Made by a program: the position numbers and the translations under genes
Shown here: piece after piece, positions 47,227 through 60,509 of the stretch
Position numbering within the stretch: position 1 is the stretch's first letter
How the letters are laid out: each line of letters opens with the position of its first letter
Notes under the pieces: generated by a model
Seen by the model: only the letters and a program-made list of their open reading frames with translations
What the model was told of the DNA's origin: nothing
Databases searched by the model: none
IMG/VR virus record: IMGVR_UViG_3300037141_000314
Span: 3,456-67,455 of that record
Strand: one strand, 5' to 3'
DNA length: 64,000 nucleotides
Source: a virus

Positions 47227-47660
47227 GAGCCCACCTGCTCGATGGTGCCTTCCCAGATGAACTCGCTAAGCGGTCGATGTGTCCCGCAAGAGCAGCAAAA
47301 TGTCCCGCCGTAGAACTGCGGATCTCTCGCATATGTCTCAGCGATCGCGCGATTCATACTGGTGCGCGTGAGGCAGCCTCCGGGAAACGGCTTCACGCCA
47401 CCGCGAATCGGATATTCAAAGCGGCTGTAGTCAGCCTCCCTGTAACGACTATCCATCCCGGAATTGTCATCAACGAGTGGTGGCGCGCCGACATGGATGT
47501 ACGCCATGCGTACGGGTCGCACGAAGCCTTTCGCGCGCTCTTCTGCCGTCAGAACGACATATCCCTTTTGCTGGCCGGTCGCGGGGTTGATCTCGCGATG
47601 ATCCTCTGTGACGGGCGAACCGTCCGTAAGAACGCGCGCGCTTCGATCTACTTCGTTCAT
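47223..47660 (-). CDS. conserved-looking phage Cys protein
   Basis: GQQK.YVVL..EERAKGFVRPVR..Y.H...IAETYARDP.FYG.TFC..C motif. Confidence 0.7.
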   Translation of the reverse strand: MNEVDRSARVLTDGSPVTEDHREINPATGQQKGYVVLTAEERAKGFVRPVRMAYIHVGAPPLVDDNSGMDSRYREADYSRFEYPIRGGVKPFPGGCLTRTSMNRAIAETYARDPQFYGGTFCCSCGTHRPLSEFIWEGTIEQVGS

Positions 47661-48190
47661 GATTTCTTCGCCTTCGGCGCGTCGGCTTTTTTCGCGACGC
47701 AGTCTGCGCTTTCGATCTCAACAGGCGTGTCCCTGCCGAAGATCGGAAGCAATAGCGTGAGAAGCGTGCCGCCTTTGATTCGACTGATCACGGCGGAGCG
47801 TCCCGCGAAGTTTCCCTTCGCCACCGTTACCGCCTGGCCCAGAACATATGTCTGCAGCGAGGGGGCAGCGGCGGCGGTTTCGATTACGAGGCGCAAGTCA
47901 GCGATCTCGGAATCAGGAATCGAAATAGGAATCTGGTCAGTACTCAAAATCGTTACAACGCCGCGCGTCCGGCGAATCAGCGGCGCGCTGAGTGGATCAA
48001 ACCGCGCAAAGATGTATCCCGGGAACAGGGGCCTTGTCGTGACTTTTTCGCGATCCGACCACTTCACTCGCTCGTCCCACGTCGGCAGAAATTCCTCGAC
48101 GCCTTCGCCGCGGAGCTGGTCGCGAACGGAAAACTCGAAACGTGATCTGGTGACCACACAAAACCAAGCCGGTACCGGTACGGTCAGCAT
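47657..48190 (-). CDS. NusG paralogue (RfaH/UpxY/LoaP-like antiterminator)
   Basis: W..V.TRSR.E, PLFPGYIF NGN domain, KOW motif GQ.V.V..G.FAG. Confidence 0.9.
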   Translation of the reverse strand: MLTVPVPAWFCVVTRSRFEFSVRDQLRGEGVEEFLPTWDERVKWSDREKVTTRPLFPGYIFARFDPLSAPLIRRTRGVVTILSTDQIPISIPDSEIADLRLVIETAAAAPSLQTYVLGQAVTVAKGNFAGRSAVISRIKGGTLLTLLLPIFGRDTPVEIESADCVAKKADAPKAKKS

Positions 48191-48237: not shown

Positions 48238-49089
48238 ATGAAGTGGGTTATCTATACCCTGAAAAACCCGCGCACAAGTGAGGTCCGGTATGTCGGCTGG
48301 ACTGTACGAGTTCCAGGCAAACGATTGCGTCATCACATCAACGAATCGCTCAAGCTTCAGCAAACTCACAAGCAGCGCTGGATTATGTCGCTTTTGAGCA
48401 TCGGATTGGAACCTGTCATCGACGTAATCGAATCCGGCTCGGGCCCGGGCTGGCAAGACGCTGAGATTCGCTGGATCGCGTTCTATCGGGCCACTGGATC
48501 GTGTCTCACGAACGCCACTGACGGCGGAGACGGACTTCTGGGATGCCGCGCGTCTGAGGAGCGCAAATCTCGCATTAGAGCGTTCTGGGCAGCTCTTACC
48601 CCGGAAGAACGTAAGGCCCGCGCGAAACACGCGCGCGATGAAAGGACGGTGGATTCGTTCGCCGCTATAAGTCGCGCAACAAGCGCGTCTATGGCGCTTA
48701 TGACTCCCGAACAGCGCAGCGCAAACGGGAAAAAAGGATCCGATGCCATCCCCTTGGAGAAACGCAGCCAGGCTATGGCTGCCCTGATGGCATCTTTTTC
48801 CCCCGAACAAAGAACTGAGAATGCGAGAAAAGCAGGCAAGACATCGCAGGCGAACCATTCCGCCGAGGAACGTCGCGCGCGTATGGCCCACGCCTACGCG
48901 AGTCGATCCCGCGAGGAATGCACTGCAACCGCGCTGCGGAATGCAGCTCAGATGAACGCCGGGCTCACCTACACCCAGAGAAGCGCGGCTCGCAAAAAAG
49001 GCTGGGCGGACACGACTCCTGAGGAGCGCAGCGCAATTATTAAAAGAGGCCACATAACCCGCGCGGCCAATAAGGCAGCGCAAAAGTGA
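48238..49089 (+). CDS. GIY-YIG endonuclease with tandem 'TPEERS'-like C-terminal repeats
   Basis: VIYTL.NP....RYVG.T...RL..H...E..WI..Y....LTN.TDGGDG. Confidence 0.85.
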   Translation: MKWVIYTLKNPRTSEVRYVGWTVRVPGKRLRHHINESLKLQQTHKQRWIMSLLSIGLEPVIDVIESGSGPGWQDAEIRWIAFYRATGSCLTNATDGGDGLLGCRASEERKSRIRAFWAALTPEERKARAKHARDERTVDSFAAISRATSASMALMTPEQRSANGKKGSDAIPLEKRSQAMAALMASFSPEQRTENARKAGKTSQANHSAEERRARMAHAYASRSREECTATALRNAAQMNAGLTYTQRSAARKKGWADTTPEERSAIIKRGHITRAANKAAQK

Positions 49090-49214
49090 TGCCGCTACGC
49101 GTGGCTGCCTGGCGGCAGCCGTCTCCTGCGGGGGGCAGGCCTCGGACGTCAGATGCACAAAGTGCCTTCCAGTCCCAGGCGCAGAGCGCATTTGGAAACT
49201 TTACTTAGCGGCAA
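49090..49214 (-). ncRNA. putative structured leader RNA of the late operon
   Basis: Closed by TGCCGCTA/TAGCGGCA with three internal hairpins; starts 6 nt after a promoter motif. Confidence 0.5.
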
Positions 49215-49220
49215 ACTACC

Positions 49221-49250
49221 TTATCGGCGCGCGCCGGGAAATCGTGCAAA
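49221..49250 (-). promoter_or_regulatory. phage sigma-28-like promoter, copy 1
   Basis: TTTGCACG-N14-GCCGATAA. Confidence 0.8.
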
Positions 49251-49609: not shown

Positions 49610-49639
49610 TTATCGGCGCGCGGCGGGAAATCGTGCAAA
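49610..49639 (-). promoter_or_regulatory. phage sigma-28-like promoter, copy 2
   Basis: TTTGCACG-N14-GCCGATAA. Confidence 0.8.
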
Positions 49640-54449: not shown

Positions 54450-54483
54450 CAGCCTCAAGTATGCGGCCAACCGACAATAAGTG

Positions 54484-55170
54484 ATGAAGCTTTTTTTGTT
54501 TGTAATATTGGCGGCCGCTTCCGCGTTCGCTCAGACCAAGCCCGCGGTTCCGGCGCTCCCGAAGCTTTACACCTATTACCTTCTGCCCGGCGCCGGCGCA
54601 TATGCGTGGCTCTCGGTCGTAGTTGATGCGACGCTGACTCTCTCGGTTGACTCGACCGGGCAGGCCCACATTGGCGCAGCAAGCCAGCAGGGCACCGCGG
54701 GACCAGCTGGCGCAACCGGGCCGCAGGGCCCTCCCGGGCCGGCCGGACCGGCGGCCTCGGCCGGGCCTCCGGGCGTGCCAGGTCCGTCAGGCGCGACGGG
54801 AGCACCCGGAGCTCCGGGTGCACTCGCTATCCAAAGCGGCGGCAAAGCGATCGGCACCGCGACGACGCTCGATATCGAGCCCGGGATCGGTACGGTGTGC
54901 GTTCCGCAGCTCAACCCCGACAATGGCGTGATGACCCTTCAGTGCTCGTCCGACACCGCGATCATAGCGTTTCGCGTTCCGGCGCCCGTTTATGCTTCCA
55001 GCACGCCGGTGGTGCAACATCCCTGTGTGGATCCGGTGACGAGCTCGCCCTATAGCGCGAGCACGTGGGCCGCAGACGCCTCGTACTTTTATACGTGCGT
55101 CCCAAGTACTCCTGCGACCGTGCCGGTTTCGTTCGTCTGGTCGCGCGCTCCAGTGACTACGGGCTGGTGA
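54484..55170 (+). CDS. collagen-like (Gly-X-Y) protein with Sec signal peptide
   Basis: MKLFLFVILAAASAFA|Q; GPAGATGPQGPPGPAG; Y.YTCV....W.R C-terminal motif seen in phage fibres. Confidence 0.8.
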   Translation: MKLFLFVILAAASAFAQTKPAVPALPKLYTYYLLPGAGAYAWLSVVVDATLTLSVDSTGQAHIGAASQQGTAGPAGATGPQGPPGPAGPAASAGPPGVPGPSGATGAPGAPGALAIQSGGKAIGTATTLDIEPGIGTVCVPQLNPDNGVMTLQCSSDTAIIAFRVPAPVYASSTPVVQHPCVDPVTSSPYSASTWAADASYFYTCVPSTPATVPVSFVWSRAPVTTGW

Positions 55171-58100
55171 CGTAGAGCGGGACGTTCTCACCGGGCATCA
55201 TCACCGCGCCCGATGCGTCGAGATAGTCCAGCTCCATCAGCACGGATCCGGATCGCCTGTCGACCGATACCTCGCATGGTGAAACAGGGCACACCGTGGT
55301 CACCGCTTTTCCGGTCGCGGCCGTAATAGTTACCTGCGCCTGCGCGGCGCCAGTTTCCTCAACAGTGAACGGGATCATCACCGTGGCCGGATCCGGTGGA
55401 TCCACACCGCCGAGGCGAACCGCCGGCCAGCGCCAGGCCGCGCCCATCCCGAAGAAGAAGCCGGGCCACTTTCCGTTTGCCAGGCTGGCGTCTGACAGAT
55501 TTGTCGGAGCGAGGTTGGTTGCGTCGGACGCTGGATCGGAGTACGCGCCCGCGGCGTCGAAGGCCGGGTTGCCGAACACGGCACCATACATCTGATCGCC
55601 CCACGCCAGGTTGGCCGCGGTCGGGCTGGCGATGTATAGCTCAGAAATCGCGTTGGCGATCTCGGCGTTTTGCTCGCGGCCGACCGACATGCTGTCCTTG
55701 CTCCCTGTGGTGTAATTGCAGCCCGGCGACTTGGCGCTGAATGAGGCGGAGGACGACGGCGGGTTGACTGGCGAGCACAGCTGATATCCGACGCCGTAGT
55801 TAGTGGTGAGGGACGCGATGTCGGTTCCAACATCGTGCAGCCAGTGAGCAATCCCGCTGCTGAGCTTCTGGTAGAAAGAGGCGACGGCGGCAAGCGCAGG
55901 ATCGGTGACGCGGGAAAGAAACCCGGTGCCGAGCGCGCGAACTCCCAAATAGAACGGCTGCACTCCGGTGCCCACGACGTTGCTCAGGTTGCCGACATAG
56001 GTGGATCCGGTTGCACCGGGCCACGCGTGATCGAGGGTCAGGGTGCCGTCGGCGTTCGCTATGCAGTTGAAGCCGTGGCTAAGATTCGCAGTATCGTTAT
56101 TGTCGGTCCCGAATGTCAGCATATTCGTGCTGCCGTTATTTGTGCTCGTGCTCATCCAGCTCACCGTGCCCGAGTCATACGGCCACAGGACCGCCAGATT
56201 TCCATTCGCCGCCATAAATTGCGAAGCGAACGGAGCGCCGCCCGATACGCCGGCCAGCGTCAGCGCGTCAAAGCCGGACGACGGAAACGGCGTGCTGCCG
56301 GCCGTCACAGTGATCACTGAACTGCCATGCACGACCGTGGCGAAGCCCTGCGCGGTTCCGATGCAAGCTGCTGCCGGAAGGCCACCAGGAGCACTCACAG
56401 TCGTCGAGCCATTCGTCAGTGTGAGCGGGCCGAAGCCTCCGTTGTATCCGAGGCCTCCGCCGCGGCTTCCCGACGGATTGAATAAGTAAGAGTTCGTGAA
56501 GCTGTTGTCTGCCGTCTTGCAGGCCGCGTCGTTGGCCGCCATCTGCACAATGTCTTTTTGCCAGCGCGCCCGCCAGATCGGATCCGGATCATAAGTTCCG
56601 GCATAGCCAACCCACTCATAAGCGTATCCGGTGTTGCGCTGGTCGTACACATTGCAGCCCGAGGTCGCTGTCGTGTTGACGTACTCCTCGCCCTGCTCCG
56701 CGTAACTGCGGAGGCTCGCCCAGCTTGGCGCACCGTCCGATCCGAGGATCGCGGCGAAGAAACTTCCAATCACCGGGCCGCCGGTAACGAGCGGGGCGTA
56801 ACCGTTGCCGATCGGATTTCCCCACGGCGAGTTGAGGAGGCAGCAGTCAATCAGGTCTGCGGCGTTTTTCGCCTCGTCCAGACCGGAGCGGAAGTACAAA
56901 GAGCGCGCCATGGTGTTCTCTGCATAGAAAAACGTGCCCGCGATCGCAGCGTTGGCGAAGAAGCCTTCGTTGGCCGCGTTGGCGTCAAAGCTGTACTGGC
57001 GGCCGGTCTGCGGCAGCGCGTCGAGCAGGGTAATATCGTGCGCGCCATTCACGGGATCGATGTAGAGCGTCGTTGGGCTCTCGCATCCCGTCACAAACCA
57101 GAACCACTCGCCGATGCCGGCTGTGTCCACGGTAAGGTTCGCACGAAGATCGATGCGTGCTGCAGCGCCTGGCGAGGCACCCTTCGGGCAAACCGCGGCG
57201 TTGGGATCGTTTAAGAAGTCAGTTCCAACGCCCGTGACTTTGAACTGACCAACCATCGAACCAGCCGACCACGCTGCGGCTGGCTCAGATCCGGCGCAGA
57301 TCGCCAGTATGTTTGGAGTCGGGATTGTCTGGGCGCAGATACGGACCTCCGTCTCGGCGCCGCCATTGAACAACAGGATTCTTGTCGGCAGGGTGCTGAG
57401 GTCGATGCACGCTGCATTTGTCACCACTACGAACATCGACCCGGCTGGCACATCGGCAGCCAGCCCGTTCGGGCAGGACTTGTCGCCCAGCGGCGTGCCT
57501 GTGCCGTCCCACGTATAGCTCACGGTCCCAGCTCCCACCTTTTCCCACCTGCTCGAATTGCCAAGCCAGCCGGCCGCCTGATACGCGGGCACGCGCAAAT
57601 CGAGAGCGCGCTTATTAAGCCTGTCCGCAGAGCCCCACGGAATTTTGCCCCACGTCATCATGTCGCCGTACAGAGCCGTTACATTCGGGTCAGCCGGGAT
57701 CACGATGCCCTTCGAATCCTGAGCCACCGCGCCAACGTCGACCGCGGTTGTGGTGCAGGCGCTGGTGTTGTCACACACGGTCAATGCAATCCGGTAGTCG
57801 CCGAAGATTACGCCAGTGGGCGCGGGCGTTCCGGACGTCAGTGAATCCCAGAAGAGCCGCGACGGGCCCGAGAGTTGTTTCCACGCCCACGTGACCGCGG
57901 CCGACGTATCGGACTGGGAGTAGCTGGACGTGCCATCGAGCGGCATCGGAAAACCCGCGCGGGCCGTCGTTACATCGGCCCAGCTTCTCCAGTTGCTTTT
58001 GATCGAGGCGTAAGGCGCCAGGACAGGCGTCGGCACATAAGTCGGAATAAATACCCCAGGTGACCCGTAGGCATAGTTGGCAGGGTAGTTGCCGCCGCAT

Positions 58101-58702
58101 GAATCACTCAGGTCGCCCTCGAACTTCCACTCGAACACGCAGCTCGCGTCTTGGCTGAAGGTGACCGGCGCGCGGGAATTCATCGGGACCAGAGTCGAGA
58201 GTACTCGCATGAAGGCAACGTTCACGACCGGCTCGTTTCCGTAGCCCATGACGAGGCCGCTTCCGGTGTTGGTCTCCGTCGTGTATGGCACAGAGACCGC
58301 GTAGAAGCGGCTGCCGTTGCTCCAGCCCTCATACTCATCGGCCTTAGCTATGACGTTGTGCTGCGCGCGCACGCTGACGTCTGTCATGCCGTCGACCGGG
58401 ATGAACGAGCCGAGGCCGTCATCCCACGTGTTACGGAGTGACACCCCTTCGCCGACGCCGGTCTGGTTAGCAAGATAGGCAACCCACCCAGTGGCACCCT
58501 GGTACGTCGGCCAGACCCCGGTGCCTGCTATCAGGTGAGTGTAGCTGTTCGGCGTCCAGTCGTGAATGCGAAACTCCACGCGGTTGTTGATGGTCAGCCG
58601 GATCGCGGTGTTCGAAATCGTCTGTGGTCCGTACTGGATGCTCTGGCCGGCGAAAGCCGGCAGCGCGAGCGCGGCGAAAAAGCAAGCGAGGGTTTTGTTC
58701 AC
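55157..58702 (-). CDS. large secreted multidomain protein (PKD-like domain, possible carbohydrate-active or adhesin function)
   Basis: Signal peptide MNKTLACFFAALALPAFA; PKD-like LDGTSS....TWAWKQLSGP; many Cys. Confidence 0.7.
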   Translation of the reverse strand: MNKTLACFFAALALPAFAGQSIQYGPQTISNTAIRLTINNRVEFRIHDWTPNSYTHLIAGTGVWPTYQGATGWVAYLANQTGVGEGVSLRNTWDDGLGSFIPVDGMTDVSVRAQHNVIAKADEYEGWSNGSRFYAVSVPYTTETNTGSGLVMGYGNEPVVNVAFMRVLSTLVPMNSRAPVTFSQDASCVFEWKFEGDLSDSCGGNYPANYAYGSPGVFIPTYVPTPVLAPYASIKSNWRSWADVTTARAGFPMPLDGTSSYSQSDTSAAVTWAWKQLSGPSRLFWDSLTSGTPAPTGVIFGDYRIALTVCDNTSACTTTAVDVGAVAQDSKGIVIPADPNVTALYGDMMTWGKIPWGSADRLNKRALDLRVPAYQAAGWLGNSSRWEKVGAGTVSYTWDGTGTPLGDKSCPNGLAADVPAGSMFVVVTNAACIDLSTLPTRILLFNGGAETEVRICAQTIPTPNILAICAGSEPAAAWSAGSMVGQFKVTGVGTDFLNDPNAAVCPKGASPGAAARIDLRANLTVDTAGIGEWFWFVTGCESPTTLYIDPVNGAHDITLLDALPQTGRQYSFDANAANEGFFANAAIAGTFFYAENTMARSLYFRSGLDEAKNAADLIDCCLLNSPWGNPIGNGYAPLVTGGPVIGSFFAAILGSDGAPSWASLRSYAEQGEEYVNTTATSGCNVYDQRNTGYAYEWVGYAGTYDPDPIWRARWQKDIVQMAANDAACKTADNSFTNSYLFNPSGSRGGGLGYNGGFGPLTLTNGSTTVSAPGGLPAAACIGTAQGFATVVHGSSVITVTAGSTPFPSSGFDALTLAGVSGGAPFASQFMAANGNLAVLWPYDSGTVSWMSTSTNNGSTNMLTFGTDNNDTANLSHGFNCIANADGTLTLDHAWPGATGSTYVGNLSNVVGTGVQPFYLGVRALGTGFLSRVTDPALAAVASFYQKLSSGIAHWLHDVGTDIASLTTNYGVGYQLCSPVNPPSSSASFSAKSPGCNYTTGSKDSMSVGREQNAEIANAISELYIASPTAANLAWGDQMYGAVFGNPAFDAAGAYSDPASDATNLAPTNLSDASLANGKWPGFFFGMGAAWRWPAVRLGGVDPPDPATVMIPFTVEETGAAQAQVTITAATGKAVTTVCPVSPCEVSVDRRSGSVLMELDYLDASGAVMMPGENVPLYVTSP

Positions 58703-58708
58703 GCTTGT

Positions 58709-58738
58709 TAATCGGCGCGCGGGCGGGAAACGTGCAAA
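58709..58738 (-). promoter_or_regulatory. phage sigma-28-like promoter, copy 3
   Basis: TTTGCACG-N14-GCCGATTA, 6 nt before the GTG at 58702. Confidence 0.8.
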
Positions 58739-58828
58739 CAGTCAAGTAGACTTTACTTGCGGTCGGTGCTGGACTCATTAAACCGAGAGATGGTGAATGG
58801 GACGGAATCCAGCATCGGCCCGTTTTTC

Positions 58829-59890
58829 CTACGCCGCCTTTTTCGCCGGCGTTCCGCGTTCGTAGCTCGAAACGCTGCGGGAACCGGTTTGCGCGACCGA
58901 GGTGACACTGGCTGCCACGTCGGGGGAGGTATAGAGCGCCAGATCCTTCAGCGTCGTCTTCGCAAATGTGCCGAAGAGTTTGATTCCTATTTTTTTGATC
59001 AGCGCCACGATGTCGACGGTGCTGACGTTGCTGCGCGGTCCGATCAGCACAGTGAAACGATCACCCGACGCTTCGAAGCCGCGGGTTGCATCGGCATCGT
59101 CGTACATACCGCGCGCCCATTCGCGAAGACTCGCCTGGCGGGTCAGTTTCGATTTAAGCGGCGCGAAAAACTGGTCTAATTCGCCCAGCTCGTCCAGATT
59201 CTTTTTGCGATCCGCTTCGAGCGCGGCCGCGGGCGATACGGAAATAGGAACTACTTTGCTGGTTTGGGTGGGTTTGGGCACACTACTATATCGGCGCGGG
59301 GTTGCCCGACCGTGCAAACCGAGGTGCCTTTGTATTTCCGTGATCGCAGCGTCGTGCTCGAAAAACACCATCCGCAGCGACATACAGAGCTCCTCGGCGA
59401 TCGCCGGCATCGTCATCTCGGCCGAGCCGTAGCGCATGGAGAGAATACACCGCCGATCGGCAGTGAGCCATGTGGCGGCCTCCGCAATCCGGCACAGCTG
59501 GTCTCGGCGTTCCGCCTGAGCGGCCTGCGTTGGCGCACAGGCGGGCAGGGGCACGCCGTCGCTCTCGTCCGCGGTACGGAACGGTAGGCACGTATTGGCG
59601 GTCCAGTGGCGCCGCCGGACGGATTCGAGCATCGCGCCGCGGATCCGCGTGTGCGCAAACGTTGAAAACGAGGCGCGGGTAGAGCCCGGGGTGGGGTGCG
59701 CCGCCGAGTCATATCGCTTGGCGGCGTGGAGCAGGCCAATCACGCCTTCCTGCACGAGGTCATCGATAGGGAATGAAGGTGGCAGGCTACGGCTCAGGCT
59801 GCGGCTCAGGCTGCGGGCGATATGGCGGACGAGGGGAAGGTGCGCGTCGACAAGTTCAGCCTGGCGTGATGTGCTGTTTTTCACTGCCAT
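58829..59890 (-). CDS. FliA/WhiG-like sigma-70 family factor with an in-frame C-terminal extra domain
   Basis: HLPLVRHIAR...DDLVQEG.IGLL.AA.RYD...FSTFA..RIRGAML..VR (region 2); region 4 HTH ends near aa 190. Confidence 0.88.
   Translation of the reverse strand: MAVKNSTSRQAELVDAHLPLVRHIARSLSRSLSRSLPPSFPIDDLVQEGVIGLLHAAKRYDSAAHPTPGSTRASFSTFAHTRIRGAMLESVRRRHWTANTCLPFRTADESDGVPLPACAPTQAAQAERRDQLCRIAEAATWLTADRRCILSMRYGSAEMTMPAIAEELCMSLRMVFFEHDAAITEIQRHLGLHGRATPRRYSSVPKPTQTSKVVPISVSPAAALEADRKKNLDELGELDQFFAPLKSKLTRQASLREWARGMYDDADATRGFEASGDRFTVLIGPRSNVSTVDIVALIKKIGIKLFGTFAKTTLKDLALYTSPDVAASVTSVAQTGSRSVSSYERGTPAKKAA
59288..59318 (-). promoter_or_regulatory. phage sigma-28-like promoter, copy 4, inside the sigma ORF
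   Basis: TTTGCACG-N15-GCCGATAT, 6 nt before the in-frame GTG at 59281. Confidence 0.75.
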
Positions 59891-59903
59891 ACTGGTGGAC
59901 GAT

Positions 59904-60218
59904 ATGAGCTTACCGCGAAAAACCCGCCAAACGTCGCTTTGTAGCCCGGACGCTACAGGAATCCATAGCGTGGCCGCAACGGTTGGGTTGGCGGTGTTGC
60001 GCTACCGCGACGCCAACGGCCTCACACAGGCCGCTCTGGCGCGCAAGTGTAGTATTTCTCGCAGTCGATACAACCAGGTCGAATCGTGCCGCCAAACCGG
60101 CATGCACGTGGTCACGCTCATGCGCCTCGCGGACGGCTGCGAAAAAACGCCGAACGACATGCTCGGCTTCGTTCTCGACCGGCGGCTGATGCCCGGGGTT
60201 TGGGACGCGGTTCGGTAG
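59904..60218 (+). CDS. XRE-family HTH regulator
   Basis: R..NGLTQAALA....ISRS.Y..VE....TL.RLA; divergent from the sigma gene. Confidence 0.8.
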   Translation: MSLPRKTRQTSLCSPDATGIHSVAATVGLAVLRYRDANGLTQAALARKCSISRSRYNQVESCRQTGMHVVTLMRLADGCEKTPNDMLGFVLDRRLMPGVWDAVR

Positions 60219-60509
60219 GGGTTTTCCGCCTGCGGTCGCAGTCGCCGCGTCCGGATCCGGCGCGGGAAGGGCGCGAACGGGATCACGCCCATTCGAAAGG
60301 AAGCTTTTTGCCCGGAGCAGGCGCGGTGCTTGTCCAGGACTTAAAGAGCCGCGGCGCGGGCTTTGACGCGACGCTTCCGAATGCCTTTTTGGATGCGACC
60401 GCGTAGCGGGAGCTCGGGACGACTTATCAAATTCACAAGGCGCGCGGCGCGCCGCTTCAGAAAGAAGAAGGTCAAAAGCCCTTAAAGGCTTTAAAGTCAA
60501 AGGCTAGAA

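Follow-up and report, generated by a model that had tools for sequence, protein, structure and literature searches.

A phage sigma factor gene that may carry a promoter of its own type and a nested gene for its fused partner

In the genome of an uncultured phage the reading frame of a sigma factor gene continues past the end of its sigma homology into a second domain, and the question raised by this locus is whether that domain is made only as a part of the fusion or also as a protein of its own. The locus lies in a window of 64,000 nucleotides, taken from the 67,455 bases of the virus record IMGVR_UViG_3300037141_000314; the contig is that of a phage, and the related group consists of uncultured soil and peat phages. 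The open reading frame (ORF) in question (58829..59890, minus strand) remains open for 353 codons and encodes a product of 353 aa, in which a linker joins a sigma domain to a domain of an uncharacterised phage protein family. In an earlier note it was suggested that this ORF contains a target promoter of its own sigma factor and gives both a sigma fusion and a free C-terminal protein, or alternatively that two genes were recently joined. According to the present analysis, the probable answer is that an old gene fusion kept the sigma-dependent leaderless promoter of the downstream gene and that both the 353-aa fusion and a free 150-aa partner would be produced.

The putative internal promoter and the nested reading frame

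The putative promoter, designated copy 4 among those of the window, consists of a −35-like element TTTGCAC at 59312..59318, which occupies codons 191–193 (G-L-H), and a −10 element GCCGATAT at 59288..59295, which occupies codons 199–201 (R-R-Y), both on the minus strand. The GTG at 59279..59281 on the same strand, codon 204 of the ORF, lies in frame 8 nt after the GCCGAT block and is the proposed leaderless start of a nested ORF of 150 aa (58829..59281, minus strand), the product of which is modelled as a long helix and a small α/β domain. Two elements of the earlier note, the continuation of the ORF for about 150 aa without a stop and the in-frame GTG at 59281 in leaderless position, are read directly in the sequence, and a third, the end of the sigma homology near aa 190 at the −35 element of copy 4, agrees with the sigma profile TIGR02937, which reaches to aa 188, TTTGCAC beginning at codon 191.

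The pattern TTTGCAC-N14-22-GCCGAT was found four times in the window (49223, 49612, 58711, and 59290), always on the minus strand; the expected number is 0.06 for the 128 kb of both strands, none of 100 shuffles reached four, and the remaining 3455 bases of the record, which were also scanned, contain no further copy. The spacer between the two blocks is 15 nt in copies 1–3, which have the spacer sequence ATTTCCCGC...CGCGC in common, and 16 nt in copy 4. The start codon stands exactly 8 nt after GCCGAT in all four copies (TTG, TTG, GTG, and GTG, respectively), and thus the copy inside the ORF has the same spacing as the others, with its start in frame, while the nested product matches independent proteins in other phages. 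A chance match as the explanation of copy 4 can refer to the fact that it has only the two end blocks in common with the other copies, but it is hardly credible in view of the low expected number, the position of copy 4 at the domain boundary, the in-frame start at the same 8 nt, and the conservation of the element in L019, a fused relative described below.

It could also be supposed that an assembly or sequencing error hides a stop codon or a frameshift between two separate genes, and the earlier note pointed to a missed stop near 59310. Split forms do exist in relatives, and no other support for such an error was found. Contigs of two other sequencing runs are identical to the window across the junction, that of run X2 over 58961-59950 and that of run X4 over 59120-59321, each with 0 differences and 0 gaps (run X1, a possible source sample, was left out of this comparison of independent contigs); a missed stop is therefore ruled out. 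Ten fused proteins besides that of the window come from other samples, and an error of this kind can be practically dismissed.

Judged from comparison with free-standing relatives, codon 204 is the ancestral start codon of the family gene, because its GTG aligns with the ATG of the free gene in locus L014 (which starts ATGCCCAAACCC, the window reading GTGCCCAAACCC at codon 204), because translation from it gives (M)PKP, MPKP being the most frequent N-terminal sequence in a set of 97 free-standing relatives (4 of 97), and because the tail before the conserved DELG motif, 29 residues from codon 204, falls within the range of the same 97 proteins (median 19, 5–95% range 4–42).

Fused and split relatives and the conserved junction

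A search with the whole protein resulted in eight fused homologues (P0002-P0009, 318-363 aa, 36-72% identity) and five short relatives consisting of the sigma part only, and the search with aa 204-353 added the fused proteins P0029 and P0033, giving 11 fused proteins together with that of the window. With aa 204-353 alone HMMER found at least 276 cluster representatives (clusters at 50% identity) at E ≤ 0.001. Among the 150 of these that were listed, 145 are not fused to a sigma domain, most of them having 105–180 aa, and the fusions are the four full proteins P0005, P0009, P0029, and P0033 and P0031, which is a fragment of a fusion. In the longer members P0118, P0135, P0152, P0112, P0034, and P0155 no match to a second domain was obtained above the cut-off, and their N-termini seem to result from ORFs called too long.

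The split arrangement, in which a sigma gene of about 190–270 aa is followed by the family gene, is common in IMG/VR contigs. The family gene comes directly after the sigma gene in L005, L011/L012, and L014 and is separated from it by one gene in L001, L006, L008, and L013, and no sigma gene was seen in the examined DNA of L002/L003, L004, and L007. In a tree of 22 sigma domains all 11 fused ones fall in one clade (97/97 support), together with the long-branched split L013, and the fused forms may have a single origin. Since fused forms are found down to 36-40% identity and belong to one clade, the fusion is not recent, and on these comparative grounds it is real, old, and maintained. Accordingly, of the alternative in the earlier note, the joining of two genes stood, split relatives being in existence, while its recent date did not, and homologues occur in both the split and the fused form. 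Two genome-contig scans aimed at DNA of the more distant fused homologues revealed no relative, P0009 had no match among GenBank phages, and a further scan of viral contigs for fused homologues gave four weak matches, all to the C-terminal part only.

The junction itself is conserved. The peptide R-[L/Y]-x-x-V-P, in which the two middle residues vary, is present in all 11 fused proteins and also in the fragment P0031, and it corresponds to CGA-CTA/TAT-N6-GTG-CC. The preceding residue is R in 8 of the 11 and C, G, and N in one each (R in P0031); R, C, and G are chemically unlike, but all three can be encoded by an NGC codon, which together with the following CGA would give GC-CGA. The comparison of the junction at the DNA level covers the window and L019, the one fused relative of ten with DNA. 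In L019 (68% identity) CCGCGCCGATATAG and GTGTGCCCAAA are the same as in the window and make up an island in which the identity is 80-83%, compared with 27-53% in the flanks, the −10 element GCCGATAT is identical, and codon 204 is GTG in both. In a comparison of the two DNAs the C-terminal part is better conserved than the sigma part, with 80–100% identity in most 30-nt windows as against 40–90%.

The codons of copy 4 were compared with usage over 9313 codons of 13 long ORFs. Rare codons are used both in the −35-like element (GGT, 11% of Gly, and TTG, 7.5% of Leu) and in the −10 element (CGA, 7.7% of Arg), and the product of seven codon frequencies, multiplied by hand, is about 3e-5 for the copy-4 spelling given the peptide. 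A search of viral contigs with the −10 element plus GTG-CCN-AAR-CC matched seven places, all unrelated by translation.

Similar promoters are found before the free-standing genes. A CGACTA core is situated 7–9 nt before the family gene start in 6 of 10 distinct loci (L004, L005, L006, L008, L011/12, and L014), and L013 has CGACTT in front of the family gene. L008 possesses three sites of the form TGATCGTTyyCGC...CGC-GCCGACTA with a GTG 6–12 nt further on, the family gene starting at one of them; in L011 there are two sites GTTAACGCTC-N12-GGCGACTA, one of them before the family gene; L004 and L005 have two GCCGACTA sites each; and L014 has four, with start codons 6–12 nt on, before the sigma gene, the family gene, and two other genes. 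Counted alone in whole viral records, the octamer GCCGACTA did not clearly exceed a reversed control (6 versus 8+1 in G002), and so the promoter argument rests on position and extended motifs rather than on counts. The L014 site at 2248-2264, GCCGACTA-N6-GTG, precedes the sigma gene itself, and judging from it the L014 sigma appears to be autoregulated; the sigma gene of the window has no such copy.

These data bear on an explanation that accepts the fusion and regards the motif as a relic, a remnant or a stretch kept for its peptide, only the 353-aa protein being made. This explanation seems unlikely to us, and it gains from several facts which at the same time weigh against an active nested promoter. 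Copy 4 has the off-consensus 16-nt spacer and lacks the spacer block ATTTCCCGC of the other three copies, its −35 part is altered in L019 (GGCGTGCAC, two changes relative to the window), and none of the 20 listed sequencing runs is on record as RNA. The free-standing protein of L007 has the peptide LRRLAIVP, and thus RRLAIVP, encoded without the DNA motif (CGC CGT CTC...GTT); the junction peptide can therefore persist without the promoter. Other points are also unfavourable to the nested promoter: the L019 locus offered no second promoter copy for comparison, the codon-level argument for the other fused relatives is drawn from peptides since DNA is available for one of ten only, a −10-like element is absent before the family gene in L001, L002/3, and L007, and some bacteria translate leaderless messages with a GUG or UUG start inefficiently. 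A relic, on the other hand, does not readily account for a junction that all 11 fused proteins keep unchanged in spite of their deep divergence, with the two residues between left free, nor for the residues R, C, and G before the motif, which fit a shared NGC codon better than shared chemistry. The use of the rare codons CGA, TTG, and GGT, the island of DNA identity in L019, and the invariance of Val204, which is GTG in both sequences with DNA, speak against it in the same way. Thus the earlier proposal that one ORF gives both a fusion and a free C-terminal protein is backed comparatively as regards the promoter and the in-frame leaderless start, by the free-standing relatives, their similar promoters, and the junction common to all 11 fused proteins; besides the fusion, the free partner would probably be produced as soon as the sigma becomes active, and the feedback role ascribed to it is conjecture.

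The family gene of L007 (2893-3384) encodes a free member with a 45-aa Pro/Ala-rich N-terminal extension, in which LRRLAIVP is located, and may be a former fusion minus its sigma part. In place of the −10-like element it has TATAAT 6 nt before its ATG, and the next ORF looks NusG-like by eye.

The sigma factor and the promoters of the window

The sigma part belongs to the sigma-70 family, in the two-domain superfamily resembling extracytoplasmic function (ECF) sigma factors. Region 2, which is FliA-like, lies at 59600..59854 on the minus strand (aa 13-97) and is matched by Sigma70_r2 (PF04542) with 54.9 bits against a cut-off of 24, and the full NCBIfam profile TIGR02937 matches aa 11-188 with 63.7 bits against a cut-off of 42.9, covering profile positions 4–163 of 165. 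Region 4 is placed at 59327..59491 on the minus strand (about aa 134-188) by the span of TIGR02937 and by a weak alignment to FliA residues 191-237, and homologues P0003, P0004, P0006, and P0008 have a precomputed Sigma70_r4 match. Because the gap between regions 2 and 4 has only about 34 residues, region 3 is absent. The nearest solved chains are those of FliA, 9wsm_F (E 3.6e-14) and 6pmi_F (E 1.4e-11), and in the alignment with FliA the pattern ...F.T.A..RIRGAML..VR...W is conserved in region 2. FliA/WhiG are also the best named NCBIfam families, but the match is confined to region 2 and far below the cut-offs (TIGR02479, 70.2 bits versus 189.6; NF005413, 71.1 versus 201), and with such scores and without region 3 the protein is not a member of the FliA/WhiG (sigma-28) subfamily.

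The −10 elements of the promoters lead in the same direction as region 2. According to PMC12784957, the consensus of the cellular sigma-28 −10 element is GCCGATAA, and in the P. aeruginosa fliC promoter it occupies positions −15 to −8. Copies 1 and 2 carry GCCGATAA exactly, and copies 3 and 4 have GCCGATTA and GCCGATAT. The upstream block is not of the sigma-28 TAAAG type at about 14 nt that is given in PMC12784957, being TTTGCAC at 15 nt, or at 16 nt in copy 4. From the position of the fliC element it follows that the phage start codons would be at about −1/+1 and that the mRNAs would be leaderless or nearly so.

The identity of the −10 element with the cellular consensus (PMC12784957), exact in copies 1 and 2, may suggest that the sigma-28 (FliA) of the host, and not the phage sigma, reads these promoters, in which case the free protein would be independent of the gene that contains it. 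We consider this quite improbable. TTTGCAC is unlike the TAAAG type of that source, the upstream half varies by phage (TGATCGTT in L008, GTTAACGCTC in L011, TTTGCAC in the window), and each of these phages encodes a sigma with a FliA-like region 2; a shared −10 element with a phage-specific upstream part is as expected if the sigma-4 region of each phage's own factor reads it. Most likely, as these comparisons suggest, the phage sigma guides the RNA polymerase of the host to four promoters with the structure TTTGCAC-N15/16-GCCGAT(A/T)(A/T), and we infer that it recognises these sites, that copy 4 is active, and that translation begins at the leaderless GUG.

The history and working of the locus under an active nested promoter can be outlined as follows. 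In relatives a small family gene immediately downstream of the sigma gene is a regular target of such promoters; in the lineage of the window, loss of the sigma stop codon and the intergenic DNA would have created one reading frame, in which the promoter and start of the small gene survived as codons 191–204. Since promoter and start appear to be retained inside the joined frame, two products would be expected. An early promoter beside the helix-turn-helix (HTH) regulator would give the 353-aa sigma-partner fusion, the sigma part of which would bring about transcription from the four sites, starting at or within about one base of the TTG or GTG start codon and yielding leaderless mRNAs. Copy 1 would be the likely late-operon promoter upstream of a NusG-like gene, copies 2 and 3 would drive genes of envelope or secreted proteins, and the internal copy 4, once the sigma is active, would be the source of a leaderless mRNA from which the 150-aa protein is translated on its own.

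The genes that follow copies 2 and 3 look real. Copy 2 (49610..49639, minus strand) lies directly before TTG 49603 of a 113-aa protein, the hydrophobic N-terminal stretch of which is complete only if translation starts at that TTG. Copy 3 (58709..58738, minus strand) lies directly before GTG 58702 of a 1181-aa protein (55157-58702), whose N-terminus is signal-peptide-like by eye. This protein has no PHROG match and only a weak PKD-like Pfam match (E 0.0075). A gene on the plus strand at 54481-55170 codes for a collagen-repeat protein (PF01391). Copy 1 (49221..49250, minus strand) is followed by TTG 49212-49214, which opens a 21-codon ORF only; the next plausible gene on the minus strand is NusG-like (47657-48190; PF02357, E 4.8e-18) and may head a late operon. 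Between copy 1 and this gene there is an ORF of the opposite strand (48238-49089, 283 aa) with no Pfam match, the N-terminus of which recalls GIY-YIG nucleases by eye.

The gene of the HTH (XRE-type) regulator (59904..60218, plus strand) diverges from the sigma gene, its ATG being 13 nt from the sigma ATG (59890), and therefore both mRNAs are leaderless or start within the other gene. Leaderless expression fits this gap, which has no room for leaders. The back-to-back layout of the two genes is also present in L019. A scan of 58500-60300 for sigma-70 promoters and terminators gave nothing above shuffled sequences.

The partner family and comparison with known systems

The structure prediction of aa 204-353 alone, which the earlier note had proposed, resulted in a confident fold: the AlphaFold2 model of the 150-aa part (98 sequences) has a pLDDT of 91.6 and consists of a 42-residue helix (aa 17–58), three strands, four short helices, and two strands, and the globular part (aa 60–150) modelled alone has a pLDDT of 93.0. 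The predicted complex of sigma aa 1-195 with the 150-aa part received a score of 0.00 (mark 0.32), which speaks neither for nor against binding. Foldseek against the PDB gave no match at E ≤ 0.001 for the 150-aa model or the globular part, the best Z of the VIA wide fold search was 4.8, for the long helix only, and 3.3 for the globular part, and a PDB sequence search with the family returned nothing below E 0.17. Residues 204-353 have no Pfam or PHROG match, and among 98 family members there were only four different single-member Pfam matches (E ≤ 0.01) and one weak PHROG match. A fold comparison with BFVD pointed to unnamed phage proteins of 100-160 aa and to two actinophage proteins, named RecB-like or PD-(D/E)XK nucleases, in their N-terminal parts; a weaker likeness, to a Siphovirus Gp157 protein, came at rank 20 (E 0.043, TM 0.30). 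Mu Gam (PF07352) and DUF7173 (PF23791), a lead from a protein atlas based on 12% and 35% of the proteins in neighbouring clusters, gave no match at E ≤ 10 in the contig and none among the 98 members.

Because of the repeated adjacency, the shared regulation, and the fusion in one clade, a role connected with the sigma factor or with RNA polymerase is the best guess that genomic context allows for this family. In L002 (2968-3357) and L003 the family gene stands between portal-like and protease/capsid-like ORFs (by eye) with no sigma gene in the examined DNA, and this head-gene context cautions against a sigma-related role and belongs with the points unfavourable to the nested promoter. It is further possible, though doubtful, that the proteins of the 150-aa family form a new class and serve phage FliA-like sigmas as dedicated partners, either as anti-sigmas or as RNA polymerase co-factors, and that in this clade the fusion and the nested promoter constitute a built-in timer: the first sigmas would carry the partner in cis, and then the free partner would flood the cell, switching sigma activity down or onto another gene set.

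Several known systems resemble the locus in part. ECF41, ECF42, and similar ECF-type sigmas carry fused C-terminal regulatory extensions and, as here, combine sigma-2 and sigma-4 with an extra C-terminal domain in one polypeptide. The extension in the window, in contrast, belongs to no described family (it is not SnoaL-like, TPR, or similar), is free-standing in most relatives, and has its own promoter and start inside the ORF, while region 2 is FliA-like and not typical of ECF factors. An extension of the described ECF41/42 type was considered as a candidate, and no Pfam family was found on aa 204-353.

In-frame nested genes are familiar in phages, as in T4 gene 49 (which has an internal late promoter), lambda C/Nu3, phiX174 A/A*, and T7 4A/4B, and they likewise give a shorter in-frame C-terminal product, in T4 gene 49 through the internal late promoter; to our knowledge none of these is a sigma gene with a promoter of its own specificity, and the nested unit of the window differs in being a formerly independent gene. 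In the case of SigR′ a sigma-dependent promoter is located at the sigma's own gene and a longer, unstable sigma is made from an upstream promoter. The isoforms SigR and SigR′ of one Streptomyces sigma, the subject of PMC4921905, are similar to the present case in that a sigma-dependent promoter at the sigma's own gene gives a second isoform that shapes the response. SigR′, however, is a longer sigma from an upstream promoter, whereas in the window an internal promoter would give a C-terminal fragment that is not a sigma. The FliA/FlgM pair with its sigma-28 promoters shares the GCCGATAA-type −10 element (PMC12784957) and a similar region 2. The sigma of the window, in contrast, has no region 3, another −35 element, and a FliA/WhiG score below the cut-off, and its partner shows no likeness to any solved chain.

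Sigma factors with C-terminal fusions, sigma isoforms, and nested phage genes are thus each already known, and the combination found here is best classed as a variant. A search of full-text literature, without supplements, brought up no account of a sigma gene within which a promoter of the gene's own type releases a fused partner. If the internal promoter fires, the locus would be a compact device, a sigma gene with a target of its own specificity releasing the fused partner separately, and the ratio of fused to free partner would report the duration of sigma activity. Apart from this, an uncharacterised phage family (at least 276 clusters at 50% identity) with a confident predicted fold and without a solved relative is tied to phage sigmas by neighbourhood, shared regulation, and fusion, and promoter sets are provided for a group of uncultured phages from soil and peat; the position of the start codon in them, at or next to the expected transcription start, aids gene calling.

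The virus record as a whole has 61% G+C, is linear, and has a completeness rated 100%; the genes of the window are mostly on the minus strand, and among their products are the large subunit of a terminase, a portal protein, tail proteins, and a ParB-methyltransferase. At the start of the contig there are 20 bases, but not 30, that recur about 110 bases before its end (about 67346), which could be chance or a trace of terminal overlap.

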